IMG/VR virus record: IMGVR_UViG_3300042566_000762
Span: 1 to 64,000 of that record
Source of the DNA: a virus
Direction: 5' to 3' (one strand)
Length of the DNA: 64,000 nt
In this document: piece after piece, positions 437-37,911 of the stretch
Position numbering within the stretch: the first letter of the stretch is position 1
Layout: every line of letters begins with the position of its first letter
Notes under the pieces: generated by a model
Database searches by the model: none
Seen by the model: the letters and a program-made list of their open reading frames with translations, nothing else
What the model was told of the DNA's origin: nothing
Made by a program: the position numbers and the translations under genes

Positions 437-2710
437 TTATCCGTTAAAACTTGCACCTGTTGGTAAGATGTTGAAATCAATTTGAATAAATTCCGCTGTC
501 TTAGTTGGTTGTAAGTAGATAGCTCCTTTAAGAATGTTTCTATCTATTACATCAGGTGTGTTGTTTGACTCATCCATTATAACTCTGAATGCGTATAGAC
601 CTTGTCTACTTTGAATTGAGTTTAAATAAGGATTAACAATGTTTAAAAACTTAGTTCTTGTCTCTGCTGAGTTTTGTTCGAATACTAAGTATCTACTTGA
701 TGATGCAATATACTTTCTAACAGTTAATAACAATCTTCTTACGTTAATTCTATCCAATGCAGATGGTTTATCTTGTAAAGTCTTTTGACCGAATACTACG
801 ATACCTTGACCTGGGAATTGAACGATTGGATTTACTTTATTTTCGTATAATGTATCTTTTTCAGCTTGTGATAATCTATCCAATACTGCAACTGCTCCTG
901 TCAAACCACCTCTATTCAAACCTGCTGGTGCGAACCATTCTCCTGCTACGTTGTCGTTTGCTGCGAATACACCTGGTAATAATACTGATGGTGGAACTGT
1001 GATTAATTTGTTTGTATTGATGTCGATAGTCTTAATCCATGGGTAGTAAACTGCTGCGTAGTTAGAATCAACTGACTGAGCTTGTGTTACTGTTGCTGAT
1101 AATGATGTGTTTGCGTTACCTGCGTCTGCGATAAAGAATGCGTCACTTCTTTCTTCAACCATATCTAAAATAGATGTGAATACTGAAGAGTGGTCTGCTC
1201 TTGTAACACCAGGTGCTACAATCATATTGATATCATACTCATCTGTATTTGATAAAGCTGCAATCATTTTATTGTATGCTACTGAACCAGATGATGTTGG
1301 AGTTGATAAGTTAAAACCTTGAGTATTACCTGCAGTGATGTCAGAACCTTTATAGATTGGAGTTGTTGGGTTTAAACCATCAAAACCTTCTTGGAATGCT
1401 ACAATGAATTGTCTTTTTGCAACATCGGTTGAAACTGAACCAGTCAATTCTAAACTATCAGTTACATCCAAAGAATAAACTGCGTTAGAACCTGTTAATG
1501 CTCCTGTTGGGATTGGTTTGATATAAATTGCGTTATCCGTATTACCATCCAAATCAATACCACCATATTGTGTAGCAGTTGCAGTTACAAAACTTACTGC
1601 TGGAATTTGTGCTGATAAAGTTGCATTTGCTAAAACAGGTAATTTGTATGCAGCGTGTCCATAAGGAACTGCTTGTACCGGAATACCTTCAGGTGCAACA
1701 TAGTCTGCATCATTACTATTCCAAACTCTAATATATTTTGAATTAACTACCCAATCACCATGCTCTGTAATTTTACCTTCAGAGTTGATTGTTCTACTTC
1801 TATCACCAATTACTCTTGAGATATAGTTAGGAGAATTAGGGTCTAAATTCACATTGTTATATGTTTCTAAAATTGTTTTCTTTTTGTTTGTGTCAGAATA
1901 TCCTCTAACAACTACTGAGAATGTACCATAATCAGTTCCACTTACCGAACCAGCTGGTTTAATATTTGAGATACCGATTTTGATTTTGCTATTAGCTGCG
2001 TTACCTGCACCTAATGTAACAAATCTTAATACATTAAATCTTTGACCTGAAATCAATTGAGATTTGATTATTGGAGTCAAAGCTTCTTGTGCATCAAATG
2101 TGAATGGTTGGTCATCCAAAACATTAACTGATGCTGATGTGTTAGCTGTAAATGCTATACTATGATTTTGGAAAAATCCATATACATATGCACCTTTACT
2201 TCCCAATGGAGATGTACCGAATGTAGATTCGATATCATTTACATCTTCTGGGTCAAGTGATGTACTTCCTGTAAATGAAGTAGAACCTGTAATAAAGATA
2301 CTGAAATCACCATTACTTGCCGTTTGATATGTAGAACCACTCAATCCAGTTGTTAATACATTTTTATCAGTAGGGAAAAGAATACCAACCGATGCACTTA
2401 CTGCTCCAGATGTTGCAGTTAATAATAAAGGATTTTGTGCAGTATATCCACCAATACCTGCTACTCTTGCAATCGTTGCAGTTCCAGCTTCTCTTAAATA
2501 AGATTGAACTGCTAAAGGAGTATAATATGTGTCATCTACTACACCATACAATGTTTCAAATTCAGCTTGTGAATTTACAATTGTTGGTACTAATGGGCCT
2601 TCTTTGAAAGGGCCGATGAATGCTGCTCCTATTTCTCCAACCCCTTGTTGTAAGAATGAAAGGTCATTTTCTCTTGTGAAAACGCCTGGTGATACTAATT
2701 TTTCTGCCAT
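437..2710 (-). CDS. gp18: Contractile tail sheath protein (gp18-like)
   Basis: N-terminal SPGVFTRENDLS; C-terminal WFAPAGLNRG, LYENKVNPI, FGQKTLQ, LDRINVRRL, FEQN, NNTPDVIDRN, LQPTKTAEFI. Confidence 0.96.
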   Translation of the reverse strand: MAEKLVSPGVFTRENDLSFLQQGVGEIGAAFIGPFKEGPLVPTIVNSQAEFETLYGVVDDTYYTPLAVQSYLREAGTATIARVAGIGGYTAQNPLLLTATSGAVSASVGILFPTDKNVLTTGLSGSTYQTASNGDFSIFITGSTSFTGSTSLDPEDVNDIESTFGTSPLGSKGAYVYGFFQNHSIAFTANTSASVNVLDDQPFTFDAQEALTPIIKSQLISGQRFNVLRFVTLGAGNAANSKIKIGISNIKPAGSVSGTDYGTFSVVVRGYSDTNKKKTILETYNNVNLDPNSPNYISRVIGDRSRTINSEGKITEHGDWVVNSKYIRVWNSNDADYVAPEGIPVQAVPYGHAAYKLPVLANATLSAQIPAVSFVTATATQYGGIDLDGNTDNAIYIKPIPTGALTGSNAVYSLDVTDSLELTGSVSTDVAKRQFIVAFQEGFDGLNPTTPIYKGSDITAGNTQGFNLSTPTSSGSVAYNKMIAALSNTDEYDINMIVAPGVTRADHSSVFTSILDMVEERSDAFFIADAGNANTSLSATVTQAQSVDSNYAAVYYPWIKTIDINTNKLITVPPSVLLPGVFAANDNVAGEWFAPAGLNRGGLTGAVAVLDRLSQAEKDTLYENKVNPIVQFPGQGIVVFGQKTLQDKPSALDRINVRRLLLTVRKYIASSSRYLVFEQNSAETRTKFLNIVNPYLNSIQSRQGLYAFRVIMDESNNTPDVIDRNILKGAIYLQPTKTAEFIQIDFNILPTGASFNG

Positions 2711-2744
2711 TTTATATACTAATTTTAAATTTATTAATTCTCAA

Positions 2745-2777
2745 TATAAATATAATATTTTAATTCAAAACCACAAA
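2745..2777 (-). promoter_or_regulatory. TTTG-N19-TATATTTA promoter (Bacteroidota -33/-7-like) upstream of the sheath gene
   Basis: Minus strand reads TTTG TGGTTTTGAATTAAAATAT TATATTTA. Confidence 0.55.
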
Positions 2778-2848
2778 TTATCCAAAGCTTTTCCATAATT
2801 GCAAGGAACGTTAAATGAATCTCCAATTACAAATAATCTCTTTACCAT
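2765..2848 (-). pseudogene. 27-aa relic of an SGNH-like gene (MVKRLFVIGDSFNVPCNYGKALDNLWF)
   Basis: Starts like the intact SGNH paralogs (e.g. MNNLVICGDSFN, 61922..62713) but stops after 27 codons. Confidence 0.6.
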
Positions 2849-2875
2849 AATTAGTGGTGGTGTCAAATCCGTTTA

Positions 2876-3538: not shown

Positions 3539-3566
3539 ATAGTTATTTGTTTATTAGATTTAATTT

Positions 3567-3597
3567 ATAATTTATATCAATGTTTGATATAAATTAT
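3567..3597. repeat. Perfect 14-bp inverted repeat with 3-nt loop
   Basis: ATAATTTATATCAA-tgt-TTGATATAAATTAT, overlapping the stop codon of 3594..5369. Confidence 0.85.
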
Positions 3598-5369
3598 TTT
3601 CCAAATCTACCTCTCATATTATTATAGATATTTGAAACTTCCGTTCCACTCAAAGCTCTTGTATAATATAATAATGCTGCCATTCTTATTCCTGGTGAAC
3701 CAGTTGTACTAATATTGGCGCTTGTTGCTGTTACCGATTGAAAATCACTTAAGTTCATTGCTACGGTAGCCACTAATGTACCATCTCTATAAACATTACC
3801 GGCCGGTTGCATTCCGGAAGCAGTAACTATTGAAAAAGCATACATATTCCAACTAGTACTAATATTAGAAAGTACGTCATTAGGTGCGTATCTAGATGGT
3901 GCACCAGGACTACGAACTTGTAATGTTGCACTATTTGCACTTGAATTGTACCACCTTACTGAAAAAGTTCTACCACTAGTGCTATCTGAAACACTAAAAA
4001 TATTTGAAAAAGCTGAAGCTTGTCCGTATTGCCACCAAACTACTGCCGCTCCTCCATTGTCAGTTAAATTAAAATTCGATATTCCAACTCCTGTTCCAGG
4101 TGCATTAACATCATTTTTCGCTGCAACATTTGCGGTTGAACCTGCAAATGTTAAGTGTTTAGGTGTAGTATTTGTAAATGTTGGATATGTTGAACCCTCA
4201 CCACTGAATTGTCCGGGTAAATATGGTTTAACATTAAATCCGGTAGCTCTTCCTGTTAAATCATGCCAAACCAATGAGTTTGCACCAGCGTATGATTGTG
4301 TTTTTTCAGCATCCAAATAACAGGCTAAGTTTGCAGATGGTATTGCTCCAACCGTATTACTACCTTTATTATGTGATACAAATCCATTCGATAAATATGT
4401 GTGTGCTACATCTACTGTAATTGTTGCAATTTCTAATGTTTCGTTTTTAGTTTCAATATTAACAACTTCGATTTCTTCCATTTCAAAAGTTGTCTTATTA
4501 TATTTAATCAATTTGTCACCAATAGTGATATCTTCTGCTCTTACAAATTGATAAGTAGAGGTTTCATTATCAAAAATAAATAATGGATGTGCTTTTGTAC
4601 ATTTTAATAAATCATCATTGATAGAAATATACGAATCAACAAATGAGTAATAAACATTAGTAATCTCTGCATCTACTACTTCTCCAGAAGAACCTGTTTG
4701 ATACCACCAATACCAATCTTCAGTATCGTTTTCTGGTAACCATTCAGGCATATCAGTTGGGACATATGTTTTAATCATATCACCAATATATAAATCTTCA
4801 GCCGATACTTCATTACCATCGGATAATAAAATTAAAGTGTTTATATCAACACAAAGTGAATCGGAATTTATTGAGTTATACGAATCAACATTATAAATTT
4901 GTTTTGAATAGACTCTGTTAAAACCATCTTGATTTGATGACCAACCACCATCATTATATGAAACTGCTAATAAGTATGGGTCGTTTCCACCATATACACC
5001 ATTTGAAATACTTGTAACTCCAATTTTAGTGGTTGCTGCCTTAATACCATCGTTGCCACTTGCATTTGTTCCAAATGTTATAGCTCCATTGTTAGGGCTA
5101 AGACTGAATGCATAGTTATTACTAACATCTTTAACTTTATTATTAAATAATGTACCAGCATCGGTAAATGAAAATACTACGTTTTCGGTGGTATTTTCTA
5201 CAATATATGTAAATGGTAATGTTGCAGATGCAGAATCAAATGAGAATCCACTAAATGATATGTTTGAACCTCCTCCGGCCAAACCACTAATTGAAACTGC
5301 CTGTGTAGTTCTGCTCGAACCACTCACAGCTCTATATAATTCACCTAATCTTTTGTTAAATAATGCCAT
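3594..5369 (-). CDS. Virion protein: N-terminal domain + Hint (intein-like) domain + LamG/ConA-like C-terminal domain
   Basis: C173 VDINTLILLSDG, TKAHP (block B), YLSNGFVSHN334; then LACYLDA..SY..W.DL and YTRALSGTEV.NIYN.MRGRFG as in the LamG paralogs. Confidence 0.85.
   Translation of the reverse strand: MALFNKRLGELYRAVSGSSRTTQAVSISGLAGGGSNISFSGFSFDSASATLPFTYIVENTTENVVFSFTDAGTLFNNKVKDVSNNYAFSLSPNNGAITFGTNASGNDGIKAATTKIGVTSISNGVYGGNDPYLLAVSYNDGGWSSNQDGFNRVYSKQIYNVDSYNSINSDSLCVDINTLILLSDGNEVSAEDLYIGDMIKTYVPTDMPEWLPENDTEDWYWWYQTGSSGEVVDAEITNVYYSFVDSYISINDDLLKCTKAHPLFIFDNETSTYQFVRAEDITIGDKLIKYNKTTFEMEEIEVVNIETKNETLEIATITVDVAHTYLSNGFVSHNKGSNTVGAIPSANLACYLDAEKTQSYAGANSLVWHDLTGRATGFNVKPYLPGQFSGEGSTYPTFTNTTPKHLTFAGSTANVAAKNDVNAPGTGVGISNFNLTDNGGAAVVWWQYGQASAFSNIFSVSDSTSGRTFSVRWYNSSANSATLQVRSPGAPSRYAPNDVLSNISTSWNMYAFSIVTASGMQPAGNVYRDGTLVATVAMNLSDFQSVTATSANISTTGSPGIRMAALLYYTRALSGTEVSNIYNNMRGRFGK
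4368..4853 (-). other. Hint / bacterial-intein-like domain (162 aa, no endonuclease, +1 residue is Lys)
   Basis: Cys1, TxxH, terminal HN followed by K. Confidence 0.85.
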
Positions 5370-5380
5370 ATTTTTTGTTT

Positions 5381-6385
5381 TTAACTATTATAAATATCTA
5401 ATAAATCTTTTACCCATTTATTTCGATTTGTAAATATCATCATTTCTGATTTTAATTTTTCAAACCATTGTTTTTTTGTTTCGTAATCCGTATTTTTTAT
5501 TTCTTTTACTATATTTTCAAATTCCGTTTTACTTTCTGCTCTATATGGGTATTCCCATTCTTTCATCCAATCTTTACTCAATATGGGTAGTTTTCCATAA
5601 TCAACCGCTTGAAATATTGAATATCCAAATGGTTCATAATTAAAACAACTATGTGAAATTCCCCAATCTAAACGATAAAACCAATCTAATTTATTATATT
5701 CAAACATATATCGTTTAGCTCGTTTAAAATTCACCCCATATCCTTTCTCCCATATATTATTCAAAACTTTTAAAGTTGTAAATAAATAACATTCTATATT
5801 TTCTAAATACCAAACTCTCTTTCTTGTTTCGGTTCTTGATGCAAATCCTACTTTTACACTTTCACTTAATTCTAAATTATGTTCAAAATCATAATAATTG
5901 GGAATATCTATAAAATCATAATTAGCATGGGTTGGTGTTTTAAACAAACCAATCCAAATTCTTTTTTTAACTGTTTTGATTATAGTATTTTCCCATTCTG
6001 TATCTGCACCATAATGTTGAACTCCCGGTGAGTCAGAAAACATACCGGCTTTCATAGACATATCTATTGAATTATGCATGACATAACTCTCTATTCTATC
6101 TAAATTTCTTAGAATGGCTGAATTTGGGTGATAATGTCCGTGTAGTATGTGAATTCGCCGAGCATTATCTATAAGTTCATCGAACTTTTCATTATCATCT
6201 ACTTGCCAATAAATTTCAAGGGGGAAGTTATCCCCCTCAAAATCATCGGGTTTCTTTCTATGTATAAGTAGGATAGGTTTTACTTTTAAGTGAGGAACAA
6301 CATACTTTACGAAGTTATTCACCCAAACATCACTACCAGCACCTACTTTATTTCCAAAACCTGTTGTATAATATACATCATACAT
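5381..6385 (-). CDS. GT-B fold glycosyltransferase (GT4-like)
   Basis: N-terminal VGAGSDVWV; VGFASR...K; C-terminal EPFGYSIFQAVDYGKLPIL. Confidence 0.75.
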   Translation of the reverse strand: MYDVYYTTGFGNKVGAGSDVWVNNFVKYVVPHLKVKPILLIHRKKPDDFEGDNFPLEIYWQVDDNEKFDELIDNARRIHILHGHYHPNSAILRNLDRIESYVMHNSIDMSMKAGMFSDSPGVQHYGADTEWENTIIKTVKKRIWIGLFKTPTHANYDFIDIPNYYDFEHNLELSESVKVGFASRTETRKRVWYLENIECYLFTTLKVLNNIWEKGYGVNFKRAKRYMFEYNKLDWFYRLDWGISHSCFNYEPFGYSIFQAVDYGKLPILSKDWMKEWEYPYRAESKTEFENIVKEIKNTDYETKKQWFEKLKSEMMIFTNRNKWVKDLLDIYNS

Positions 6386-6387: not shown

Positions 6388-8568
6388 TTATAAGCTATTG
6401 TTCTTCTTTAGATTTTCAATTTCTAAAGTTAAATTGTGTATTTGTGTTTGTTGTTCTTTAATACCTTCAATCAATAATGCAACTAATTTGTCATATTTAA
6501 CTGCCTTATATCCATTGTCTCTGTCTTGAACTAATTGTGGTAATACTGCTTCAACTTCTTGTGCAATTACACCCACATCATTTCCTTCGTATCCATGTAC
6601 ATCTTTTAAATCTGCTTTCCAATCATAAGTGTTACCACTAATCTTAGAAATCTTATCCAATGCATTTTCGATTGGTTTGATATTTTCTTTCAAACGAACA
6701 TCCGAAGTTGAGAATGCCACAATATCATTTGCTGCGTCTATTCTACCAGATGTTCCACTTGCAGCCATACCAACACCAATAGATGCGAATCTTACGTTAT
6801 CAGATGTTGCTACTGCTTGTCCGATTGAAATTGTTACTGTACCTGTTGCACTATCTCTACTTACACCCGTTCCTGCTGTAATTGAAGTTACACCTGTATT
6901 TGCAATAGTTACACCGGTTGAACCATTATAAGATGTTCCACTTAATCCAGTACCAATTGTCAAAGTTGCTAAGTTAGAACCCAATGTAATACCACTAATT
7001 GTTTTAGAACCAGAAACAACAGTTTCCGCATCTAATCTCGTTTTAATACCGGTTGACCAGTTTGTAGTTGCAGTTGCGTTTATTTGAGATGAACCACTTA
7101 CTACACCATTTGTAGCATTTATTATACCATTATATGATGTTGCAGTTGATGAACCTGTTAAAATAAATGAACCACTAATTTGAACTGAACCAGTAAATTC
7201 ATGTGTATCATTACCAAAATCACCAAATCTATTAGAACCAGATGTAAATATAACTGATGCTGTTTCGTTGACAACTGTTAAATTTGTAATAGTTAAATCC
7301 GTAATGGTAGTTCCACTTAATTGTGATGAACCTGATATTACACCAATTGGTAATAATGGAGTTACTTGTGAAGAACCACTAATTGTTCCTGCTGGTAAAT
7401 TTGCTATTGTTTGAGCAGAACCCGAAACTACACCATTAGTTGCGTTAATTATACCATTGAATGAATTTGCGGTTGCTGACCCTGATATAGTCGTTGATGC
7501 GTTAATATTTAATGTTCTGCTATCATTTGCCATATTACCATTCATAAATGGTTGTGACTGATAATCACCATTGCTTACATACAATTTATAACTTTCCGTA
7601 GTATCTGAACTAGGGCCTGCATTTGCACCTAATAAAAGGTTGTTTGTACTATTACCTGTTAAATATGCACCTGCGGAATATCCTAATGCTGTACTTTTAG
7701 TAGGGGTATCATTAGAATTAACACTACCTAATAATGCATTACCACCAATTGCAGTATTGTAAATACCATCATTCAAATAAGTACCCGCATTAGTTCCTAA
7801 AAATACGTTCTGACTCACATTTGAACCAGTCATAGTAAATGCAGTACCATATCCTATTGCAATATTTTGACTATTACTACCACTTATACCATATCCAGCT
7901 TGGTCACCAACGGCTATATTGGACTGACCTGTTGTTAATCTATACAATGAAGCTCTACCAAGACCCACGTTACCTACACCACTTGTCAAAGATGGCATTA
8001 TATCAATACCTAAAACAACGTTTTGGTCAGGACTAGTTCCTCTTCTACCAACTTCGAATTTACCAGCGTTTAGATATGAACCATCTCCAATTTGTATATT
8101 TGCTTGAGAGTATAAACCATTAGGGAAAGTTTGAGAACCATCTGCATTAGTAGATAGTGTTGAAAGCACCGAACCATTATTTACAACTTTAATTGAACCG
8201 GTTGAAATATAAAGGTCTCTCCAAACTTTAGATGTAGAACCTAAGTCAAATGCATTTGTTACTGATGGTAGTAATGATGAACTTAATGCAGCAGTCATAT
8301 TTACTGTATCGGATGTATTATCACCGATTGTAATGTTACCACCTAATGTTAAATTACCATCAATTTTTGCGTTTCCTGTAATGTCTAATGATGAACCTGA
8401 AATGCCAGCGAATGAACCCTGACTTCCTGTTCCGGATGCACCCAATGTGATATCTCCTGTTAATCCACCAATTTGTAATGTCCCTAAGTCTGTATTTACA
8501 TAAGGTTCTCCGAATGCCAACGAACCGGATTTTTGTGCGTTCGTACCACGTCTAAATTTAAGTCCCAT
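6388..8568 (-). CDS. Fibre protein: Mtd-N-like anchor, beta-helix (Hep/Hag-like) repeats, C-terminal S74 intramolecular chaperone
   Basis: RRG..LAFGEPY; NxAxG repeats; SDVRLKENI...W...GVIAQEVEAVLP...V.YDKLVALLIEGIKE. Confidence 0.88.
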   Translation of the reverse strand: MGLKFRRGTNAQKSGSLAFGEPYVNTDLGTLQIGGLTGDITLGASGTGSQGSFAGISGSSLDITGNAKIDGNLTLGGNITIGDNTSDTVNMTAALSSSLLPSVTNAFDLGSTSKVWRDLYISTGSIKVVNNGSVLSTLSTNADGSQTFPNGLYSQANIQIGDGSYLNAGKFEVGRRGTSPDQNVVLGIDIMPSLTSGVGNVGLGRASLYRLTTGQSNIAVGDQAGYGISGSNSQNIAIGYGTAFTMTGSNVSQNVFLGTNAGTYLNDGIYNTAIGGNALLGSVNSNDTPTKSTALGYSAGAYLTGNSTNNLLLGANAGPSSDTTESYKLYVSNGDYQSQPFMNGNMANDSRTLNINASTTISGSATANSFNGIINATNGVVSGSAQTIANLPAGTISGSSQVTPLLPIGVISGSSQLSGTTITDLTITNLTVVNETASVIFTSGSNRFGDFGNDTHEFTGSVQISGSFILTGSSTATSYNGIINATNGVVSGSSQINATATTNWSTGIKTRLDAETVVSGSKTISGITLGSNLATLTIGTGLSGTSYNGSTGVTIANTGVTSITAGTGVSRDSATGTVTISIGQAVATSDNVRFASIGVGMAASGTSGRIDAANDIVAFSTSDVRLKENIKPIENALDKISKISGNTYDWKADLKDVHGYEGNDVGVIAQEVEAVLPQLVQDRDNGYKAVKYDKLVALLIEGIKEQQTQIHNLTLEIENLKKNNSL

Positions 8569-8627: not shown

Positions 8628-11600
8628 CTATTTGTTTTCTAAATCCTTTATTTTTACTGATAATTCTTTAATTGCTTCAATTAATAATGGAATAATTTTT
8701 TCATATTGAACTGCCTTATATCCGTTATCTCTATTTGTCACAATTTGTGGAAGGATTTCTTCAATTTCTTGTGCAATTACTCCAACATCATTTCCTTCAA
8801 AACCATGATATTCTTTTAATTCTTCTTTCCAATCAAATGTGTTACCACTAATTTGATTTACTTTTTCTAAAGCGTTTGGAATCGGAATAATATTTTCTTT
8901 TAAGTTTCTATCTGAAGTTGAGAATGCTACGATGTCACCACTTGCATCAATTCTACCTGCAGTTGCTGATGCGGCCATACCTACTCCTAATGAGTTATGT
9001 CTAACATCCGATGTTGTTAATAAATTTTGATTAATAACACTACCATATCCAGTTGTTGATGATAATGTTATTTGTGCAGAACCGGTAACAACCGAACCCA
9101 TTGAAATTCTAATTGCATCCGTAGATATAGAACCTCCTAAAGTTACCGATGTTCCTGCAATTGTAATGGTTTTGTTAGAACCCAATGATGCCCCATCTAT
9201 TTGTGCCGAACCCGAAACGATACCGGCTGGTAATGCTGTTGTAATTTGTGAAGAACCTGAAATTACACCATCACCACCTGCTCTTAATAATTTTAATTCA
9301 CTTCCTAATGTTCCCGCTTTCCAATAATCATTTGTAGAATCCCATAATAATGAACCGGAAATAGTAGAAGCACCCGTTGGGTCTTTAACTAATAATCCGC
9401 CATTTGCTACACCACTACCATTTAATTCAATAATATTATCTCCAATATTAAGAGTTGTTGAATCAATTTGAGTAGTTGTTCCTTTTATGGTTAGATTACC
9501 ATTAATTGTTACATCTATACCACTTGCAGTGATTGCAGCATTAAGTGATGATGTAAATGTATTTAATGACGTATTACCATTACTTGCACTAAATGCGTTT
9601 AATGATGATGTACTTTCTTCAATTCTATTTAATCTTGCATTTGCAGACGATGTGAAGTTTTGTAAAGATGCGGTTGCTAAATTTATTGCTACCAATGCTG
9701 TTCCAATATTGCCTGGGTCTAAAGTAGTTACAGTATATTCTACCGCATCCAATCTACTATCTACCGATTGACTAAATGTATTATATGTAGATGATGTAAA
9801 TAAATTTAAAGATTCAGTATGGGAGTTATATGATGCAGTTATATTTGATAATGTCGTAAATCTGCCATCAATACTTGCAGTATAAGTTCCTAATGTTACG
9901 GCTTTATTTTCTAAACTATCAATTCTATCTTCATGATTTGATGCAGTATTAAATAATTCAACTATACTTGCAGTTGCTGAACCTGTAAATGCGTTGTAAG
10001 AAGAAGTTATATTTGAAATAACAACATCTTTTTCATTTTGAGAACCAGTCCAACTATTTAAGTCCAAAATATGACCATTAACGCTTGCAGTATACAAATG
10101 TATAGATGAAGTAAATGAATTCATAGACGCAGTATATGCTGATATGATTACATTTTTTGACTCTTCCGATGCTGTAAATACATTTAAAGAATGTGTATGT
10201 TGATTTATAGATTGAGTATGTTGATTTATACTCGCTGAAGTTATTTGTAAATTGGACAATCTACTATCTACCGATGTTGAGTAATTTTCAACACTTGCAT
10301 TGTTTAAACCTGCGATTGTAGATGAACTTATTTCTCCTAAAACACCAAGTTTTGTATTAAAATATAATCTTTGATTGGAATCTTCCCAACTCATTGAAAC
10401 ATTTGCTCCTGCTATGTTTAACCCAGCTCCATCTGCGATTCCAGATGTTGTTGAACCACTGGCCAATGTTATACTTTTATCTTCAATAAAAGTTTCGGTT
10501 GTATTTAATGATGTTTGTATACCATCTACAATTAAGTTTCCTTTGATTCTAGTATCACCACCAGTTACATCAATTGCGGTTTTTAATGAAGATGTATATG
10601 ATTCAATATTATCTAATCTTATTTCGTGATTTGAACCCGTCCATTCCAAATCATCCAATCTTGCATCAACACTTCCACTAATTGTATCTATATATGTTTT
10701 AACTGCGTATTGTGTTGGAACTGTATCTTCACCTGTAATTCCTTGTGCGTTTAATAAAGTTGTATTATTACTAACTTCATTTAATACAACACCCACACCT
10801 ACTCCGTTTCTTTTGAATGGGCCTATTGCACTTAATCCTGATAAATTAAATTGGTTTGCATCAATTGTAACTTCTCCAGTCAATTGATTTACTGCAAAGA
10901 AATCACCAATTTTTAAATTACCTATATTGTCAACTGTTGAATAAAATACTCTACCTGGAGCATATTCAACAATTTCTCTATTTCTATTTGGAACTCCACC
11001 GAATTTTGGAAGTGCGTTGTATGTAACACCACTACCAACATATTCCATTACCAATCCACCCGTTGAGATGTTTGATAATTGGTGGAAATAAACTCTATCT
11101 CCCGTTGTAATTGAAGGTGGAGATGGGTATACCGAAACATATCTTTCATTCGCACTACTTCCGGTTGCAACATTTGTTACCAAATAATCTGTTCCATCCA
11201 AAATCATATTTGAAGAAACATCAACACCTCTACTTCCACTTTCTAATTGGAATAATATTGCAGCAATACCACTAATTTCAGCTTTTCCTGCCACAGTTGT
11301 AGCTTGTATTGCACCTGGACCAGTTGGTGCTGCAATTGTAACTGTTGGTTGTGATTTATATCCACTACCAGGAGTTAAAATTACAATTTCATCAATTGAA
11401 CCATTTGCATTAACAGTTGCTTCTGCGGTTGCATTTACACTTGCTTCACCACCGGTAATAATAACACTTGCAACTGAACCCGTATAACCTGCTCCGTCTT
11501 GTTGAATAACTGCACCAACTACTGTTGATGTTAATGTTTGTGAAGAAGAACCTGTATTATATGTTTGTGGGAAATAAGTTTTAGATACTAAACCTTTTGC

Positions 11601-25400: not shown

Positions 25401-26489
25401 AACTGCAGGGGAATCATTGTTAAGTATTACTCTATTTGTACCAATTGATACCACACTTGCACTAATCAATTCCAATGATGATGAACCTTGTACTATTAAA
25501 TCTTGTGTAATATATAATGAACCGGTGATTACTTGTTGTCCGTAGAATATATTTGAACCACTTAATAATGCGTATGAACCACTTACCGATTCTAAAGTAT
25601 CTAATCTGCTATTTTGTGCATCATTTAATGTATCATTTGATTGAGTATATGAATGTATACTTGAAATAAATGTATTTACACTTGCTGATGTAGATTCTAA
25701 ATTATTTAATCTACCATCTTGTATAGCTTGTGATGAAGATACATTATATGCACTTGCACTAAATGAAGTTGCAACACTTGCACTTAATTGTGTTTGTGAT
25801 GCTCCACTTGCACTAATTGAGGTTGCAACTGAAGAACTAAATACTGCAGTCGAACTTGATATACTTGAAGATAAATTGGTTTGAGAAGCTTGACTTGCAC
25901 TAAATGAGGTTGATACCGATGAACTTAATGATGTCACACTGGCTGCACTTGCACTAAATGAAGTTGCTACCGAAGAACTAAATTCTCCTGTTACAGATGA
26001 AACTGATGCAGATAAAGCAACTATACTAGCATTACTTGCAGAGAATGAAGTTGCTACCGAACCACTAAACTCACCAGTTACAGATGAAACTGATGCAGAT
26101 AATGCAGTTACACTTGCATTACTTGCTGAGAATGAAGTTGCAACTGATGAACTAAAGTTACTAATGTTGCCCGTTAAATCTGGGATATCATTTTTGTCAG
26201 AACCAAGTAAGTATAAAGTTGAACTACCACTTGCATAGTAAGGAACACCTTTTACCAATCCATTGTAAGTAGATGAACTAAATACATTTGGTGCGTTGGT
26301 GCCCATTAAGAATCTATTAACTGCTTGAACCGAACCACTTTCGGTTGCTGCGAATAGAATAGATGAACCATTGGTTGTCGTTAAGTTGGACGAACCTGAG
26401 GTTATTATTAATTCACCTTTCTGGAAAGATGAGGTTGCTGCTGATAACGATTCCAACGAACCACGTCTGTGTCTAATGATTTGTGCCAT
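22446..26489 (-). CDS. Long Ser-rich coiled-coil fibre protein
   Basis: RHRRG...KGEL anchor; heptad repeats RLxNLESTSASVN.SIAALN.S.ASQQ.SIDALN; GDNIIELNG..ANGGL module; ends DGGTY. Confidence 0.82.
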   Translation of the reverse strand: MAQIIRHRRGSLESLSAATSSFQKGELIITSGSSNLTTTNGSSILFAATESGSVQAVNRFLMGTNAPNVFSSSTYNGLVKGVPYYASGSSTLYLLGSDKNDIPDLTGNISNFSSSVATSFSASNASVTALSASVSSVTGEFSGSVATSFSASNASIVALSASVSSVTGEFSSSVATSFSASAASVTSLSSSVSTSFSASQASQTNLSSSISSSTAVFSSSVATSISASGASQTQLSASVATSFSASAYNVSSSQAIQDGRLNNLESTSASVNTFISSIHSYTQSNDTLNDAQNSRLDTLESVSGSYALLSGSNIFYGQQVITGSLYITQDLIVQGSSSLELISASVVSIGTNRVILNNDSPAVRFGGISVQDSGSAQGVSGSLLWDSLNNNWIYQHPNTGSEAAMSAILISGPLNSGSLGNEVRITPGKIMVATGDDHIGDSMMTQTTNKININGGLGVSGSLIVNEAIIGTSSIFLQPDINDARQVQIYNTGASDVHIKGTTGLTFLGDDTNYVAINDSAQTVTVKGVNGVFIETSLNVTGPISASAGFSGSIEGIGNVTAYSQSVSASLASIVANVGSGVGVSITNLNSFSSSTLGRLSNIESFSSSVETKLTEIATITGSLIISASAAKSTNDTQDNRLTNLESTSASVNISVSNLNTFSASVNTSVAALNTSSASQQISIDALNIVSGSNLSRLTNLETTSASVNTSIAALNTSSASQQVSIDALNVVSGSNLDRLTNLESTSASVNVSIAALNSSTASQQVSIDALNVSSASLNTFTSSASNRLSNLESTSASVNTSVAALNTSSASQQVSIDALNVSSASLNDYTASASGRLSNLESTSASVNISIAALNSSTASQQISIDALNSYTSSNSSTTALNAFTASAEGRLSNLETTSASVDSRLSNLQTTSASVNISIAALNTSSASQQVSIDALNVVSGSNLDRLTNLESTSASVNVSIAALNSSTASQQISIDALNIASASLNTFSGSTLDRLTNLESTSASVNTSVSNLNTTTASLNTSVAALNSYSSSLKTAFELTGSNVIVLGDFTVRGTTTSVESTTIQLGDNIIELNGTGAANGGLLVKDPTAPNTVSGSLLWDSTNDYWKAGAAGAESKVALMGGDNLVTSSAQILFDQINGYSTFSGSVATDFSASNANITSLSASVASVTGNFSSSVATSFSASNASITALSASVANVTGNFSSSVATSFSASAASQTLLSSSFASSQATQNGRLDNLETTSGSLNSFSSSIDTTIKTKLNVEGVISGSSQITITDTTGYSTFSSSIATSISASVAGATWENINGKPGGIVSGSSQIDITQTTGFNTFSASIETRISIIDGGTY
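23400..24580 (-). repeat. Tandem 42/49-aa coiled-coil repeats
   Basis: Repeated DNA blocks such as acacttgcagaagttg and gcatcaatactaacttgttgaga. Confidence 0.85.
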
Positions 26490-29183: not shown

Positions 29184-29657
29184 TTAAAACTCCCCCTGGT
29201 CAATAATATTCGATGCAGTAAGATAAACTTCTAAATCGGTTGCAAACGTATCTCCTAAAGATGCAGTATAAGAATGGAATGATTGTGTCGTTGTATAAGA
29301 TGTAGTTATTGCTCTTAAACTTGAACTTACCGATTGACTTAATGCGGTCACCGATAATGCACTTCCACTTAATGTAGCTGCAATTGAAGAACTTATTGAT
29401 GATGATATTAAAATTTGTGATGAAGATATTGAAGCACTTACAACCGCTACTTCTAAATCTGTGGCTATATCATTATATCCAATTGTTCCCGTAATAAATA
29501 TTTGAGATGAACCCGATACAACACCATCAGGTAAAGTAGCTGCTACATTATCTTGTATGATATCAATTACCGATTGTGAAAAATCGGTACCAATGTTTGC
29601 AGATTGTTGTAATGCAGAACCACTTTCTATTTGTTTTAATCTTATTAAGTTTGCCAT
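29184..29657 (-). CDS. Small virion structural protein
   Basis: Shares IATDLEV..SSSISSSIA.TLSGS with 26992..29136 and FATD..DxGEF with 26596..26976. Confidence 0.65.
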   Translation of the reverse strand: MANLIRLKQIESGSALQQSANIGTDFSQSVIDIIQDNVAATLPDGVVSGSSQIFITGTIGYNDIATDLEVAVVSASISSSQILISSSISSSIAATLSGSALSVTALSQSVSSSLRAITTSYTTTQSFHSYTASLGDTFATDLEVYLTASNIIDQGEF

Positions 29658-30369: not shown

Positions 30370-32517
30370 TTATGATAGTTTTATATATCCGTAATTAATT
30401 GTTTGGGTTGTCCCACTATTATTTGTGATACCAAACTTAAATACATTTGAAGTATTTGGTGCGTATGATGTTGGAGAGGATATGAGAGTATTAGTTGTAC
30501 CTATAATTTGGTCAGGCATTGCAGTTAAAACTAATGCATTACCTGCTGTGTAATACCAACCATATTGAGCACCAATTACTGGTACATTTGTATTTGATGT
30601 TGTTACAGTTGCGTTCCAAGTTATAATACCATTTGGAATATTACCATTTACCCACATTGTATATGAAGCACCGGCTTCTACTGTAAAACTTTGTGTAGAT
30701 GCTCCTGCTGGTACCGACCAAGCTCCCGTTGTTTTTGATGGGAATGCAGTTGTCAATTGAGTTGAACCACTTATTACACCATTGGTTGCTGCTATTGAAC
30801 CCGTTATAGATGTTGCGTTTAATGAACCTGTAATTTCTACTAATCCATTATTTTGAATATATAAATTACTACCACTTTGTAAGAATAGTGATGAACTATT
30901 GTTCGTAATTGCAGATGCAATTATTTGTCCTGATGTAACAACCATTGAACCACTAAATATTTGTGACCCACTAAATGTGTTTGAACCAGTAGTTACCAAT
31001 CCATTAAATCTACTATTAAATGATGATGATATTGAAGAAAATGAACTACTTAAAGCATATCTTGCATCGTATGATGATGTCAATTGTGAAGAACCACTTA
31101 TTGTACCAGATGGGACTGCACTAACACTACCACTCAATGTATATCTTGTATCAAACGAAGATGTTAATTGTGATGAACCACTAATAGTTCCGGATGGGAA
31201 TGATGTTTTTGAATTTAATTCTACTGCCGTTAAAGTAGGGCCCATTGACTCACCAAAATCAAAAAGACCTGAAATACCACTAACAGTTCTCATACTATAT
31301 GTATAAGTTCCAGCTGATGCGGTATCTATTACATTTAAACAATATGGAACATTTAGGTTTGAACTATTTTCAACTTGGACAATATTTCCAATTGCAGTTT
31401 CATTTCTATAAATTTGTAATCTAGTCCAAGATGAAACATTTACTGGGTTTGCATCACCGGTCACCATAATTTGAACTGGGTTACCTGTTGTTGTTATGTT
31501 TTCACTTATTATTGTTACACCCGTTGATGTAACTCCGGTAACTCTACTACCCAATTTTTGAACATAGTTTACACTTCCACTTATGATTGATGCTTCTAAT
31601 GTATCTAATCTACTATCTACCGAAGAACTTAATGTTGTAAATGAAGATGTAGTTACCAATGAACCCGTATCTATGGTTGTTGAAGAACTTATAAATCCAA
31701 ATGCAGTTATTTGTGCAGATGAACTTAATAAATTTGAAGGTAATGGTTGAACACTTCCACTCAATGTATATCTTGCATCGTATGATGATGTTAATTGAGA
31801 TGAAGAACTTATTGCTCCACTTAATGATGTCAAAAATGAACCCGTTTCACTTTCAGTAATCCAACTACCACTTACACTCTCAATTGTGTTTAATCTATCC
31901 ACTAATGATGATGTAGATTGTGATGCCGTAAAAGTATTTAAATTTGAAATAGATGTTACCAAACTTGCAGTTGAAATACTTGCAGTAAAAGTATTTAAAT
32001 TTGAAATAGAAGTTACAATTGATGCCGTAGTTACACTTGCAGTAAAAGTATTTAAATTTGAAATAGATGTGTTTACTGATGATGTAAATGTTTGGTAAGA
32101 ACCCGTATCAAATCCACCTTGTATACTTACAACACTACCACTAATAACATTAAATGATTGTGATATTGAATTGAAAGATTGTGTTAAACTATTGAATGAA
32201 TTTATAGTAGTGTATGAACCCGTTACAAATCCTAAATCTAAAATTTGTGAAGAACCACTTATAGTTCCACTTGCAACCGATGCCGTAAATGATTGAGTAT
32301 AAGAATTGAAAGATGATGTTGATAATTTTGTATCTAATGTATTACTTAATGCATTAGTTACTAAGTCCGTTGCAAATGCACCATCTAACGAAGATGTTAA
32401 ATTATTTATAGAAATTTTATATGTTGTGCTACCTGAAATACCAAGTACAAAAGTTGTATCTAATGATGCTACACTTAATGCAGGTAATTCTGATATTTTT
32501 TTTCTTGAGTTTGCCAT
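30370..32517 (-). CDS. Ser/Thr-rich fibre protein
   Basis: KKISELP N-terminus; SGSSQLTSSYD.RY and TTGSNTF modules shared with other fibres. Confidence 0.75.
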   Translation of the reverse strand: MANSRKKISELPALSVASLDTTFVLGISGSTTYKISINNLTSSLDGAFATDLVTNALSNTLDTKLSTSSFNSYTQSFTASVASGTISGSSQILDLGFVTGSYTTINSFNSLTQSFNSISQSFNVISGSVVSIQGGFDTGSYQTFTSSVNTSISNLNTFTASVTTASIVTSISNLNTFTASISTASLVTSISNLNTFTASQSTSSLVDRLNTIESVSGSWITESETGSFLTSLSGAISSSSQLTSSYDARYTLSGSVQPLPSNLLSSSAQITAFGFISSSTTIDTGSLVTTSSFTTLSSSVDSRLDTLEASIISGSVNYVQKLGSRVTGVTSTGVTIISENITTTGNPVQIMVTGDANPVNVSSWTRLQIYRNETAIGNIVQVENSSNLNVPYCLNVIDTASAGTYTYSMRTVSGISGLFDFGESMGPTLTAVELNSKTSFPSGTISGSSQLTSSFDTRYTLSGSVSAVPSGTISGSSQLTSSYDARYALSSSFSSISSSFNSRFNGLVTTGSNTFSGSQIFSGSMVVTSGQIIASAITNNSSSLFLQSGSNLYIQNNGLVEITGSLNATSITGSIAATNGVISGSTQLTTAFPSKTTGAWSVPAGASTQSFTVEAGASYTMWVNGNIPNGIITWNATVTTSNTNVPVIGAQYGWYYTAGNALVLTAMPDQIIGTTNTLISSPTSYAPNTSNVFKFGITNNSGTTQTINYGYIKLS
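31921..32075 (-). repeat. Three tandem 57-bp repeats (TSISNLNTFTAS...)
   Basis: aaagtatttaaatttgaaataga recurs with a 57-bp period. Confidence 0.85.
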
Positions 32518-32520
32518 TTA

Positions 32521-34506: not shown

Positions 34507-34510
34507 AATA

Positions 34511-34966: not shown

Positions 34967-34967
34967 A

Positions 34968-36176
34968 TTATCCTACATATATTTTTAAAGGAACTTTTCT
35001 TAACATTTCTTGTTGGTGAGTCGATTCATGTGCTTTATTTTCCATCACTTTAATTCTACTCATCTCTTCCAAATTTTCTCTAAGTTGTTTTACTAAATCA
35101 TCTTTTTCTACCTGTGCCTCTGCTCTCAATGCTGCACCATCTAAACTTACTTCACCATCTGGAATTGGAACCGAACTATACTTTTCTCTAATTGCACCCA
35201 ATAATTCTTTTGTAAGTGCAAGTGTATATTTTCGAATCCACTGTTTACCAACTTCATTTATATTTGAATATTGGATAAAATCATATGGAATATCCGAATA
35301 GTCAGAAAGTGAATCGGCTTGAACGGTTTGTGAATCGTGTTCAAATTCATCTCTACTTATATATTCAAAATAAACTCTACTCATTCCTGTACCTGTTGGT
35401 ATTGGAAATATTTCTAATTTATTATCTACAATATTAAATGTGTGTGCTGATTTTCTAATATGGTCATTGAACTCAATTTGTTGCATTCTCATAACATCTT
35501 CATACAAAGGCATCATTAAGAATTGTGCAGCTGGTGAATAATTACCAAATCCTAACTCACTAATTAAATTTAATGTTCCTTGTGCACCTACCGAATATGG
35601 GTCAAAAAATCTTGTAATAGCAGGAACTGCTTCATGATATACTCTGGTTACATCTACAGTAGAACTACCACTAAATATTTCAGAAAAATTTCTACCACTT
35701 TCAACATCAACTGCGCCTGACATTAAATTATATAATTGAACCGATGCAGTTAAATTGACATAAGCTTTTTTTATCGATGTAGAACCTCCAACTCCCGCAA
35801 GTGTTCCATATTGTTGAGACATACGAACCGTTGTTGGTAAAAATGAACCATCTACAAGTGTTTGTGAATAGTTTGCAACTTTACCTTTGGGTTGCCCTCT
35901 AAGAATATCTAAATTATTTCTAAGATTGAATTGATTTACTTGTGCAGAATATTCCGAAACGGATTCTTCAAAACATGCCCAAATTTGTTGGTTATCTAAT
36001 TCAATATTTACAATAGGATAACCCAATCTTTTTGCTACCCATACTGCAGTTTTAGGTGCATCGGTTTTAAAATCAGTATCATTATCATATATTCCAAATG
36101 GAGTAGCTTCTAAAGACGCGGATGCAGATAAAAATGAGTTATACGTTGAACCGGTCCAGTATGTGTTTGCAGACAT
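34968..36176 (-). CDS. gp13: Neck protein (gp13-like)
   Basis: RLGYPIVNIELDNQQI; WIRKYTLALTKELLGAIREKYSSVPIPDGEVSLDG. Confidence 0.85.
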   Translation of the reverse strand: MSANTYWTGSTYNSFLSASASLEATPFGIYDNDTDFKTDAPKTAVWVAKRLGYPIVNIELDNQQIWACFEESVSEYSAQVNQFNLRNNLDILRGQPKGKVANYSQTLVDGSFLPTTVRMSQQYGTLAGVGGSTSIKKAYVNLTASVQLYNLMSGAVDVESGRNFSEIFSGSSTVDVTRVYHEAVPAITRFFDPYSVGAQGTLNLISELGFGNYSPAAQFLMMPLYEDVMRMQQIEFNDHIRKSAHTFNIVDNKLEIFPIPTGTGMSRVYFEYISRDEFEHDSQTVQADSLSDYSDIPYDFIQYSNINEVGKQWIRKYTLALTKELLGAIREKYSSVPIPDGEVSLDGAALRAEAQVEKDDLVKQLRENLEEMSRIKVMENKAHESTHQQEMLRKVPLKIYVG

Positions 36177-36201
36177 TACTTAAAATTTATAGTTTTACTA
36201 C

Positions 36202-36210
36202 TATAAATAT
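36202..36210 (-). promoter_or_regulatory. ATATTTATA motif upstream of the neck operon
   Basis: Immediately after the capsid terminator. Confidence 0.6.
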
Positions 36211-36220
36211 GAATTATATA

Positions 36221-36264
36221 AATAAAAAAGGGGAAAGTATTTCTACTCTCCCCTTTTCTTTATT
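36221..36264 (-). terminator. Rho-independent terminator after the major capsid gene
   Basis: Minus strand AAAAGGGGAGAGTA-GAAA-TACTTTCCCCTTTTTT. Confidence 0.88.
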
Positions 36265-36297
36265 GTAAGTCTATTACTTATCTAATCTACTCAAAGA

Positions 36298-37911
36298 TTA
36301 TAAAGTGTTCAAACCTTCAACGATAACTTTACCGTAGAACTCAGGTCTTACGATTTTCTTAGCGTATCTAGTCATAACACCTCTTCTTGGAGTGAAGTTA
36401 GTTGGGTCATAAACTAATGGAGTCATAATCAATGGAACATATGGTGCGTAAACTGCTCCTGTTTCGAAGAAGTTAGAACCTTTGAAGCCCATTAAGATAA
36501 CGTTCTCTGTCATGTATGGGTTTTTGTAAACATCATATCTGTTAGAGATTGAACCGATGTTAGTTACACCTGCTGCGAAAGTTAACGCATCCTTACCAGG
36601 ATTTGCAGAGAAACCATTCATTGATTCTAAAATAGTAGCTACGTTTGGAGATACAACTAAGAAGTTAGCACCACCTCTCATAGTCAATTGGTGAATCTTG
36701 TTAGATACCTTTTGTAATTTGATACCTAAAGTTTGATACCAAGTACTCTTAGTGTATGCAGATGCTGCAGCCGCGTTAGCGTCAATTGCAAATGCGTTAG
36801 TTGCACTATTGTAATCGTATCCAACTCTTGCAGACCAATAATCAGTTGTGAAAGCATTTTGTTGTAACATATCTAAGATTTCTAAGTCGATTTCTAAAGA
36901 GATGTATTCAGACAACATTTGAGTTAACTCAGCTTCAGCGTCTACACTATGGTAAGCGTTTAAATCTTGAGCTAATTCAGGAGTCCAAATTGCTTTTAAT
37001 TTTCTTGTCTTAGCAACGATTGGTTCAGATTTCAATTCTAATTCGATTTCTGGAATATTGATATCAGCACCAGTTCTATCTTCAAAGTCACCTCTGTTGT
37101 AATCGGTTGGTTGAACGTGGTAAGTTAATACCTGAGTTCCCAAGTTAACATCAGCTGCAGCAGAACCAGAAAGGATAAATGATGCAGAACCTTCAGATAA
37201 TGTAGTATATTCTGGTAATAAAGTTGTTGTTGCAGAACCTGAAACTTTGAAAGCTTTGATTCCGTTGTAATCAGCATCAGCAGGTAACCCAACAGTTACT
37301 TTCATAATTCTGTGGTTAGCTCCAGCGATAGAAGCAGATAATGCAGAATCAAATCTAACATCAGCAACAGATGCAGAAGCTACAGTAGCTGTTACGTTTG
37401 CAGTTGTGTCGTTGATTGTGTATCCAAATCTACCAGAACCATAAAGACCACCTTCAGTAGCTTGAGTAGAACCCAATTTGTTTCCTGTTGGAGATAAATT
37501 GTCTTTACCGAAAGTACCACCATTACCGAACATAGAAGAACCAGATGCTGGTCTACCTAAAGTTGTGTTAGTACCATATTTGAAATCCATGTAGAAAATA
37601 AGACCTGAAGGTAAGTTCATTGGTTGAACTGAAACGAACTCTTTAGAAGCGATAGAACCGAAGATTCTTCTTACTAAAGGTAACGCAACACCAGCCCACT
37701 CTTCAGAACCTGAAGATGTACCTGTTCTTGTAGCCTCATCTAATAATTGTTTTGCTTGGTTTTCTAACATTACTGCCATACCATGCTTGTTTGTTTCAGA
37801 ACCTGCGTTCTCTAACAAACCTGTTTTTTCCCACTTAGCTTTCAAACCTCTTGTTTGCTCTAACATAAGAGTTTGAGGGTTTGCGCCAGTCATTAATTTT
37901 TTTAAGTCCAT
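36298..37911 (-). CDS. gp23: Major capsid protein (gp23-like)
   Basis: KW..LLE, LPLVRR, VQPMNLPSGLIF, AKTRKLKAIWTPELAQDLNAYH, AEAELT, YAPYVPL, FTPRRGVMTRYA. Confidence 0.97.
   Translation of the reverse strand: MDLKKLMTGANPQTLMLEQTRGLKAKWEKTGLLENAGSETNKHGMAVMLENQAKQLLDEATRTGTSSGSEEWAGVALPLVRRIFGSIASKEFVSVQPMNLPSGLIFYMDFKYGTNTTLGRPASGSSMFGNGGTFGKDNLSPTGNKLGSTQATEGGLYGSGRFGYTINDTTANVTATVASASVADVRFDSALSASIAGANHRIMKVTVGLPADADYNGIKAFKVSGSATTTLLPEYTTLSEGSASFILSGSAAADVNLGTQVLTYHVQPTDYNRGDFEDRTGADINIPEIELELKSEPIVAKTRKLKAIWTPELAQDLNAYHSVDAEAELTQMLSEYISLEIDLEILDMLQQNAFTTDYWSARVGYDYNSATNAFAIDANAAAASAYTKSTWYQTLGIKLQKVSNKIHQLTMRGGANFLVVSPNVATILESMNGFSANPGKDALTFAAGVTNIGSISNRYDVYKNPYMTENVILMGFKGSNFFETGAVYAPYVPLIMTPLVYDPTNFTPRRGVMTRYAKKIVRPEFYGKVIVEGLNTL

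Follow-up and report, generated by a model that had tools for sequence, protein, structure and literature searches.

A virion-wide [S/T]-[G/A]-S tripeptide of aquatic T4-like phages behaves as a selected linear motif and is a candidate O-glycosylation sequon

The tripeptide [S/T]-[G/A]-S is about four times over-represented in the virion proteins encoded by IMG/VR record IMGVR_UViG_3300042566_000762, a contig of 106,461 bp (CheckV completeness 56%) from an uncultured, T4-like, aquatic phage; the window is the first 64 kb (64,000 nucleotides) of this contig. The best-supported reading of these sequences is that of a selected short linear motif that is independent of fold and sits on the virion surface. 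This reading follows from the residue statistics, the sharp residue rules, the turnover of sites among orthologues, and the contrast with LR756508, a related phage whose orthologous proteins are without the motif. The first-pass annotation of this DNA had proposed that the tripeptide is the site of a phage-encoded virion glycosylation system, with the product of gene 5381-6385 as candidate enzyme. This proposal is partly supported: on exterior proteins of unrelated folds the tripeptide has the properties of a selected linear motif, but the choice of enzyme is not supported. We regard it as an even bet that the motif is the acceptor site for a phage-made O-glycan coat. O-glycosylation is the leading chemistry because the motif co-distributes with a conserved cassette of glycosyltransferases (GTs). 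Modification of the motif, its nature as a sugar, and the identity of the enzyme are all three inferred from sequence.

Gene identities were taken from PHROGs and Pfam. All long open reading frames (ORFs) of the window, and the features described within it, lie on the minus strand. Each protein was compared with 2000 shuffles of the whole protein and 2000 shuffles inside blocks of 30 amino acids (aa). Counts are given as observed versus expected, with two expectations standing for the global and the local shuffle. Across the contig, the virion proteins (fibres, sheath, neck, capsid, and baseplate) contain 317 motifs versus 82.6 expected, and all remaining proteins contain 9 versus 15.6. Specifically, the tail sheath (757 aa, 437-2710; phrog_23, E = 1.8e-73) has 9 motifs versus 2.1/2.4, a count reached by 0 of 2000 shuffles, the gp23-type major capsid protein (MCP; 537 aa, 36298-37911) has 7 versus 1.35/1.8 (p 0-0.0015), and the gp13-like neck protein, a head-tail adaptor (34968-36176; phrog_211), has 5 versus 0.7/0.96. 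Among the fibre and fibre-like proteins, none of 2000 shuffles was as high as the count in 6388-8568 (17 versus 4.6; C-terminal S74 intramolecular chaperone, PF13884, E = 5.6e-18), 8628-13052 (33 versus 7.3; 1474 aa, long fibre with S74 chaperone, PF13884), 18689-21739 (39 versus 6.6; 1016 aa), 22446-26489 (70 versus 17.5; 1347 aa), and 30370-32517 (27 versus 7.2; 715 aa). Shuffling likewise gives 11 versus 2.3 for the fibre 14681-16276 (S74 chaperone, PF13884), 9 versus 1.25 for the fibre-associated protein 21855-22415 (186 aa, N-terminus matching tail-fibre PHROGs), and 6 versus 1.5 (p 0.002-0.006) for the fibre-associated protein 29184-29657 (157 aa). The enrichment is weak in the Ser/Thr-rich fibre-like protein 26992-29136 (714 aa; 18 versus 10.2, p 0.003-0.016) and not significant in the conserved 591-aa protein 3594-5369 (5 versus 2.4, p 0.09). 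Past the window, the excess is also found in baseplate and fibre-like proteins (genome positions 73687, 83332, 84617, 86540, and 94255).

The hand counts of the first-pass annotation were all reproduced: 9 at 21855-22415, 9 in the sheath, 5 in the neck protein, and 7 in the MCP, of which 5 are at residues 179-250. The recount also gave 0, as had been claimed, for each of TerL (46020-47627), the portal (43000-44739), and the prohead protease (40623-41213), which were assigned by PHROGs. The description of the fibres as saturated with the motif is borne out for the large fibres; 26992-29136 and 3594-5369 are weak or not significant. Composition-shuffled controls and the frequency in non-virion proteins had been named as checks; the excess is kept under global and 30-aa block shuffles, and the non-virion frequency is not equal to that of the virion proteins.

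An unbiased scan of tripeptides ranks SGS, TGS, and SAS at the top in fibres, and TGS and SGS at the top among the well-populated tripeptides of non-fibre virion proteins. The motif occurs 313 times in the coding frame versus 79.5 expected, with the remaining five frames at or below expectation, and it is encoded by 89 distinct nonamers. As the excess is present in the coding frame alone and involves this many nonamers, the signal is at the protein level and is not a DNA repeat. The codons of the motif are skewed in the virion genes of the contig: at position 1, AGT makes up 54% of Ser codons (background 29%) and ACG 23% of Thr codons (background 7%), and GGT makes up 82% of Gly codons versus 61% in the background. 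The motif had been said to differ from the Bacteroidota sequon D-[S/T]-[A/I/L/V/M/T], and the latter is indeed at expectation (62 versus 63.2 in virion proteins and 48 versus 47.8 in others), which rules out the host sequon.

The residue rules are sharp and do not differ between the fibre and non-fibre sets. At position 1, Ser and Thr alone are enriched, 3.3- to 4.3-fold in both sets alike. At position 2, Gly is enriched 4.6-fold and Ala 2.4- to 3.1-fold, no other residue is enriched, and charged and bulky residues are depleted. At position 3, Ser is enriched 3.6- to 3.9-fold, and Thr reaches 1.05-fold in fibres and 1.8-fold in non-fibre virion proteins. Permuted orders are not enriched in the virion proteins, with 97 versus 82.6 for [GA]S[ST] and 57 versus 82.6 for S[ST][GA]. 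The residue at -1 is hydrophobic in 63% of motifs versus 31% in the background, and Val, Leu, and Ile are favoured at +3.

We then located the motifs within the proteins. All 9 sheath motifs, at residues 105-192 and 406-474, lie N-terminal of the conserved core (Pfam core at residues 480-747). The N-terminal 450 residues of the sheath are matched by clade members only, and we take the motif-bearing N-terminal part to be the outer domains, by analogy with T4 gp18. The MCP (phrog_138, E = 4e-73) is of the T4 type, having an HK97-like fold with a gp23-type insertion domain, and PF07068 is annotated on its homologues. Its AlphaFold2 (AF2) model has a predicted local distance difference test score (pLDDT) of 80 and is matched by Foldseek to T4 gp23 with an E-value of 2.6e-21. 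The MCP motifs are confined to residues 67-250 of the 537, the C-terminal region being free of them, and five of the seven are in the insertion domain (residues 169-264, 37120-37407). In 52 distant MCPs (32-59% identity), the stretch aligned to query residues 110-270 holds 93% of the 191 motifs; the counts are 177 versus 49.5, as expected from the composition of that stretch itself, and 13 versus 27 elsewhere. Counts at or below the composition expectation are seen in the MCP cores, in the non-virion proteins (9 versus 15.6), and in phage T4, which has mostly 0-1 per protein. The baseline ratio for [ST][GA]S may be below 1, or the tripeptide may be avoided where modification is harmful.

The structural contexts of the sites differ. 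In the MCP model, site 192 is in a helix, sites 179, 224, and 248 are at strand ends, and site 242 is inside a strand. In the Ser-rich fibre 22446-26489, a motif starts every 14 residues over residues 649-1019, which form a coiled-coil-like shaft. Other fibre motifs are located in beta-type repeats such as P-x-G-V-V-SGS-S-Q; 18689-21739 has many of its motifs in P-x-G-(V/I)-(V/I)-SGS-(S/A)-Q repeats. Since helix, strand, and coiled-coil-like contexts are all represented in these predicted structures, a single structural role cannot cover all sites. The shaft matches the coiled-coil families SlyX, DUF16, and DUF7310, and in its 14-residue repeat the first Ser of the motif appears at a core position, four residues past a Leu.

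By MCP, the nearest cultured relatives are Flavobacterium phage immuto and Microcystis phage Mel-JY01, at 53% identity each; the uncultured phage LR756508 (484 kb) has the same identity. Sites 179 and 192 of the MCP are retained in 116-118 of 120 close relatives, and other sites come and go. These two sites vary within the grammar of the motif (Ser or Thr, then Ala or Gly, then invariant Ser), and their flanks change freely. The 52 neck orthologues (39-88% identity) contain 193 motifs versus about 0.7 expected per protein, distributed over 41 alignment columns, of which none is universal and none is occupied in more than 20 sequences. The alignment indicates that the neck proteins keep the number of their sites but not the positions. 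The excess is also found in immuto, Mel-JY01, 80 IMG/VR loci, the related complete genomes G004 and G001, and the related genome G019. In immuto, the tail spike gp101 has 53 motifs; in G001, the enriched proteins have 489 versus 126.5 and the rest 70 versus 66. T4 has no excess (observed/expected, gp18 1/1.35, gp23 0/0.68, gp34 2/2.7, and gp37 6/3.4, with 0-1 in baseplate proteins), nor has the cyanomyovirus S-RIM2, a cyanophage. These two phages rule out a general property of T4-like virions.

LR756508 has orthologues of the sheath (E = 1e-196), the MCP (1e-178), and the neck protein (3.5e-70), plus baseplate proteins. Not one of its 581 ORFs shows enrichment at p < 0.001, and the observed and expected counts are 1/1.05 in the sheath, 1/0.72 in the MCP, and 0/0.24 in the neck protein. 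Its MCP insertion domain keeps the scaffold residues and has unrelated residues at every motif position. Hence, the motif is not needed to build the sheath, neck, or MCP. The comparison indicates that the motif is an overlay acquired within one clade and not a requirement of the folds. RM378 and LR756511 show no excess within 24 and 41 kb, respectively, around the MCP gene, and their fibres may lie elsewhere. No match was obtained among 50,697 phage records by tblastn with a 126-aa stretch of SGS repeats, which may be an effect of the low-complexity filter. Sharp residue rules, independence of fold, turnover of sites with their number kept, and absence from the orthologues of a sister lineage were all observed, as for a selected sequon-like motif.

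The explanation that we favour is that [S/T]-[G/A]-S, mostly preceded by a hydrophobic residue, is a positively selected linear motif on the solvent-facing parts of the virion, namely fibres, outer sheath domains, neck, capsid insertion domain, and outer baseplate proteins. Its Ser would be O-glycosylated in the cytoplasm, late in infection, by soluble phage-encoded GTs, giving a glycan coat on the particle. The best candidate reader of the motif would be a cassette consisting of two GT1/GT4-like enzymes (about 470 and 430 aa) and a small GT2. In immuto, the cassette comprises the adjacent genes gp181 and gp180 (GT1/GT4-like, 480 and 436 aa) and gp178 (GT2, 207 aa). It is present in the same gene order in all eight motif-positive genomes (immuto, G001, G003, G004, G007, G019, G020, and Mel-JY01) and in none of the five motif-negative ones (LR756508, LR756511, RM378, T4, and S-RIM2). 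In the collection of 50,697 phage records, gp181-like genes are confined to the MCP clade of this phage, and a single-sequence scan of IMG/VR for the cassette returned immuto-like contigs only. Immuto, G004, and G001 have 47 genes in common; ten of these are missing in LR756508, and five of the ten are glycan-island genes. Both this share of glycan-related genes and the distribution of the cassette (8/8 versus 0/5) support glycosylation. In wider terms, a large aquatic T4-like clade with reported hosts from Flavobacterium to Microcystis would O-glycosylate its whole virion exterior at hydrophobic-[S/T]-[G/A]-S, with the GT4-like pair and the GT2 starting the glycan and the islands and fibre-linked GT-B enzymes diversifying it. 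We put this full scheme at somewhat below an even chance.

Sequence searches of the PDB with the conserved cassette pair gave weak generic GT4 matches only and no GtfA/GtfB. The best match of a cassette GT was chlorovirus B736L, whose E-value of 0.0016 is too weak for kinship. In Mel-JY01, a stop divides the gp181-like transferase into two ORFs (PP395634.1, 83444-84929), each annotated as a glycosyltransferase; the cause may be a frameshift, an error in sequencing, or a genuine split.

A number of observations weigh against glycosylation by this cassette. The cassette is not seen in the analysed contig itself. It is probably encoded in the missing 44% of the source phage genome, because the relative G019, which is collinear with the window (sheath E = 9e-281, GT-B gene E = 1e-204, the same fibres), carries it about 64 kb beyond the sheath gene, with Pfam assignments to GT1 and GT2, in a region missing from the 56%-complete contig. 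The distribution of the window's own GTs does not follow that of the motif. Distant gp181-like genes persist in LR756508 (31% identity) and RM378 (25%), neither of which shows a motif excess, and LR756508 lacks GroEL, PhoH, and a phosphohydrolase as well. The motif-positive phages form one clade, so the cassette and the motif make up a single evolutionary contrast with which any clade-specific gene would correlate equally. In addition, the hydrophobic flanks and the small middle residue also suit a packing motif, and the fibre counts come partly from internal repeats.

The gene 5381-6385 is located between fibre and sheath genes and begins 2 nt past the stop codon of the upstream fibre gene. 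It has no Pfam match at E 0.01 and no PHROG match, and PF00534 finds nothing contig-wide; the assignment as GT4-like is therefore made from the fold. The AF2 model of its product, TRANSFERASES, has a pLDDT of 87 and a predicted template modelling score of 0.85, and consists of two Rossmann-like domains as in the GT-B fold. Foldseek matches the model with a probability of 1.00 and template modelling scores of 0.56-0.66 to GT4 enzymes (GlgM, BshA, MshA, PimA, and WaaG) and to the T4 alpha-glucosyltransferase. The C-terminal domain has an E-x7-E-like signature, EPFGYSIFQAVD (EPFGYSIFQAVDxGKLPI). All 30 homologues have the first Glu; at the second position, this protein and 10 of the 30 have Gln, the other 20 have Glu, and a paralogue has Asp. 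The predicted enzyme itself contains no motif. The paralogue (genome 72704-73690, E = 1e-44) directly follows the fibre-like gene 73687-77502 and heads a low-GC glycan island. Both predicted transferase genes begin at, or a few bases from, the stop of a fibre or fibre-like gene, as would suit soluble phage GTs expressed together with structural genes. Of 40 IMG/VR loci, with identities as low as 49%, nearly all show the order fibre-like ORF, GT-B gene, 420-590-aa ORF, and small ORF. In G001, a 727-aa GT1-family gene comes after a gene for a 2802-aa motif-rich protein, with a small 129-aa ORF between them.

The presence of a GT4-like gene in the fibre operon had been claimed from the letters of the sequence, and the claim is right at the level of fold. 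The same gene is not supported as the enzyme for the motif, as it does not track it. Its homologues were not detected in motif-positive G001, G004, and immuto, and were found in 2 of 18 related records and in neither of the two complete genomes. Motif-free LR756508 has a homologue (E = 1e-74; LR756508.1, 128867-129886) near its baseplate and fibre genes, and the GT-B protein of that phage presumably has a role independent of the SGS motif. We reject 5381-6385 as the sole motif-reading enzyme. The gene following it, 3594-5369, always follows the GT-B gene, with synteny kept. Residues 247-336 of its product give a weak Hint/pretoxin-HINT match (PF07591, 26.1 bits, below the cut-off), which may represent a self-processing domain in a fibre-associated protein.

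A sugar island in the window had also been noted correctly. It occupies 53409-64000 and continues to genome position 73690, contains no motif, and encodes RmlC (56590-57135; PF00908, E = 8.6e-34) and an SDR epimerase/dehydratase (57952-58923; PF01370, E = 9e-34). Just past the window, it encodes two GT7 enzymes with LamG domains, a radical SAM enzyme, and the GT-B paralogue. The tandem GT7 pair (genome 68049-70873) matches human and Drosophila B4GALT7/B4GALT1 over the catalytic core with an E-value of 2e-30, and both enzymes carry a LamG/ConA-like lectin domain. The G+C fraction of the island is 0.24-0.29 (window 52000-64000) versus 0.33-0.34 in the structural genes, and this markedly higher AT content suggests that the island was acquired separately. 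The island is not common to the motif-positive relatives. By phmmer, it has no homologues in the island of immuto, and the GT7 pair is absent from motif-positive G001, G004, immuto, and Mel-JY01, which rules the pair out as the motif-reading enzyme. On the explanation that we favour, the GT-B 5381-6385, its paralogue 72704-73690, and the GT7-LamG island would lengthen or vary the glycan of certain fibres, or serve another purpose.

Explanations other than glycosylation were weighed against the same evidence. The tripeptide could be an unmodified folding or packing grammar of the surface modules of this clade, with a small Gly or Ala between Ser and hydrophobic residues packing trimeric shafts and add-on beta domains; such a grammar would be propagated as repeats duplicate and fibre genes exchange modules, and would be retained by descent. 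The preference for hydrophobic residues at -1 and for Val, Leu, and Ile at +3 fits packing, many fibre motifs are within repeats (P-x-G-V-V-SGS-S-Q and the 14-residue shaft), and the conservation of MCP sites 179 and 192 in nearly all close relatives agrees with it. However, an identical residue rule holds in helix, strands, coiled-coil-like contexts, and non-repetitive proteins, and Ala at position 2 together with the exclusion of Thr from position 3 in fibres is unlike a simple Gly turn. The positions of neck sites shift from one orthologue to another, LR756508 makes the corresponding sheath, neck, and MCP domains with no need of the motif, and the fibres, sheath, and capsid of T4 have no excess of it. 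We consider packing unlikely, though worth serious attention. An origin from composition, DNA repeats, or codon bias is next to impossible. It is true that the fibres are rich in Ser, Thr, Gly, and Ala and internally repetitive, and that AGT and ACG are over-used at position 1. Composition and low complexity are ruled out by the global and 30-aa block shuffles and by the lack of enrichment of permuted tripeptides, and a DNA-level, codon, or repeat artefact is ruled out by the frame test and the 89 nonamers; the excess is also present in the non-repetitive MCP, sheath, and neck proteins and in distant orthologues.

Selection for a linear motif is silent on chemistry, and the Ser might instead be the target of a non-glycan modification or of a host enzyme (phosphorylation, acylation, or an assembly cross-link), with the glycan genes serving the host envelope or the phage DNA. 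That the island and the GT-B gene of the window do not track the motif is compatible with this view, as is the DNA-modifying T4 enzyme among the GT-B structural matches, and DNA-decorating GTs of viruses are on record (reference list of PMC12619734). Against it, the genes specific to motif-positive phages include no kinase, acyltransferase, or similar enzyme, versus five glycan genes, and a host enzyme would have to be common to the reported hosts Flavobacterium and Microcystis. The DNA of immuto is reportedly discussed in a preprint on 7-deazaguanine DNA modifications (10.1101/2023.04.13.536721). Immuto has queuosine-pathway genes and DpdA, and its GT island is not obviously needed for DNA. 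Another modification is in our view improbable. Still less credence goes to an unmodified functional surface, a hydroxyl-rich patch that tunes hydration, aggregation, or weak binding to polysaccharide, mucus, or particles. The confinement of the motif to exposed proteins of an aquatic clade fits such a patch, but the patch has no need for a strict order, a Ser-only third position, or a hydrophobic residue at -1.

If O-glycosylation at the motif is correct, abundant freshwater and marine T4-like phages would make their own dense sugar coat, and its placement would obey a sequence rule that is simple and predictable. Among phages of Gram-negative hosts or cyanobacteria, it would be the first glycosylation system to be directed by a sequon and to cover the virion; in the literature searched, we found no description of the motif or, for aquatic T4-like phages, of an internal tripeptide sequon extending over the virion. 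The coat would influence how the phages adsorb, aggregate, are grazed, and are recognised by defence or immune systems, as well as their host range. It would also account for many unexplained glycosyltransferase islands in large phage genomes and provide a three-residue tag for engineering glycosylated phage particles. The claim is directly testable, as the relative immuto is culturable. Even without a sugar, a tripeptide that is selected on every exposed virion protein irrespective of fold, and that a sister lineage can do without, is a rule of surface design that has yet to be explained. The LR756508 contrast and the dissociation of the motif from the fibre-operon transferase are what the present analysis adds.

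Known systems resemble the proposed one in different respects. In chlorovirus PBCV-1, a virus-encoded cytoplasmic machinery acts on non-canonical sequons of the major capsid protein; different from the phage case, the glycans are N-linked, the host is a eukaryotic alga, and the capsid fold is unrelated. The general O-glycosylation of Bacteroidota, the presumed host phylum, also uses a three-residue sequon, but it is periplasmic and acts on exported proteins, and its sequon is not enriched here. The GT7 pair, which matches the eukaryotic beta-1,4-galactosyltransferases B4GALT7/B4GALT1, recalls through its LamG domains the dense O-glycosylation by lectin-guided ppGalNAc-transferases, although its absence from motif-positive relatives means that it cannot be the motif-defining enzyme.

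By analogy, the closest mechanistic counterparts would be GtfA/GtfB acting on Ser-rich repeat adhesins and TibC/Aah acting on autotransporters. In the Ser-rich repeat protein (SRRP) adhesins of Gram-positive bacteria, GtfA/GtfB O-glycosylate Ser in S-(A/V/T/E)-S repeats in the cytoplasm; a GT4 enzyme acts with a GT-B-like partner of about 440 aa, and the pair is encoded beside the substrate gene. The fibre 22446-26489 is similar in having 22.8% Ser, SAS repeats, 70 motifs, and a GT-B gene in the same operon, and the conserved cassette likewise contains a pair of about 470 and 430 aa. The differences are that the PDB sequence searches showed no kinship of the conserved pair with GtfA/GtfB, or with TibC/Aah, and that the motif also occurs in globular virion proteins. 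No SecA2/SecY2-like genes, which would correspond to the accessory Sec system of SRRPs, are found in the annotated parts of the contig. The heptosyltransferases TibC and Aah hyper-glycosylate Ser in short repeats of the beta-rich surface fibres TibA and AIDA-I, also in the cytoplasm and ahead of export or assembly; their family is not GT4-like, the sugar is different, and the substrate is a single protein.

Among phages, glycosylation of mycobacteriophage virions by phage-encoded glycosyltransferases was reportedly described by Freeman and colleagues in Cell Host Microbe in 2023. As quoted in PMC12619734, the glycans of mycobacteriophages are attached by phage transferases at the C-termini of capsid and tail-tube subunits. 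The two cases are alike in that soluble phage GTs are thought to act in the cytoplasm, and here a GT gene is also found inside the late structural module. They differ in the sites. C-terminal acceptor sites of the mycobacteriophage type are not seen here, where the MCP motifs end at residue 250 of 537, and the candidate sites are an internal tripeptide spread across fibres, sheath, neck, capsid insertion domain, and baseplate. Virion glycosylation by phage transferases is established for mycobacteriophages.

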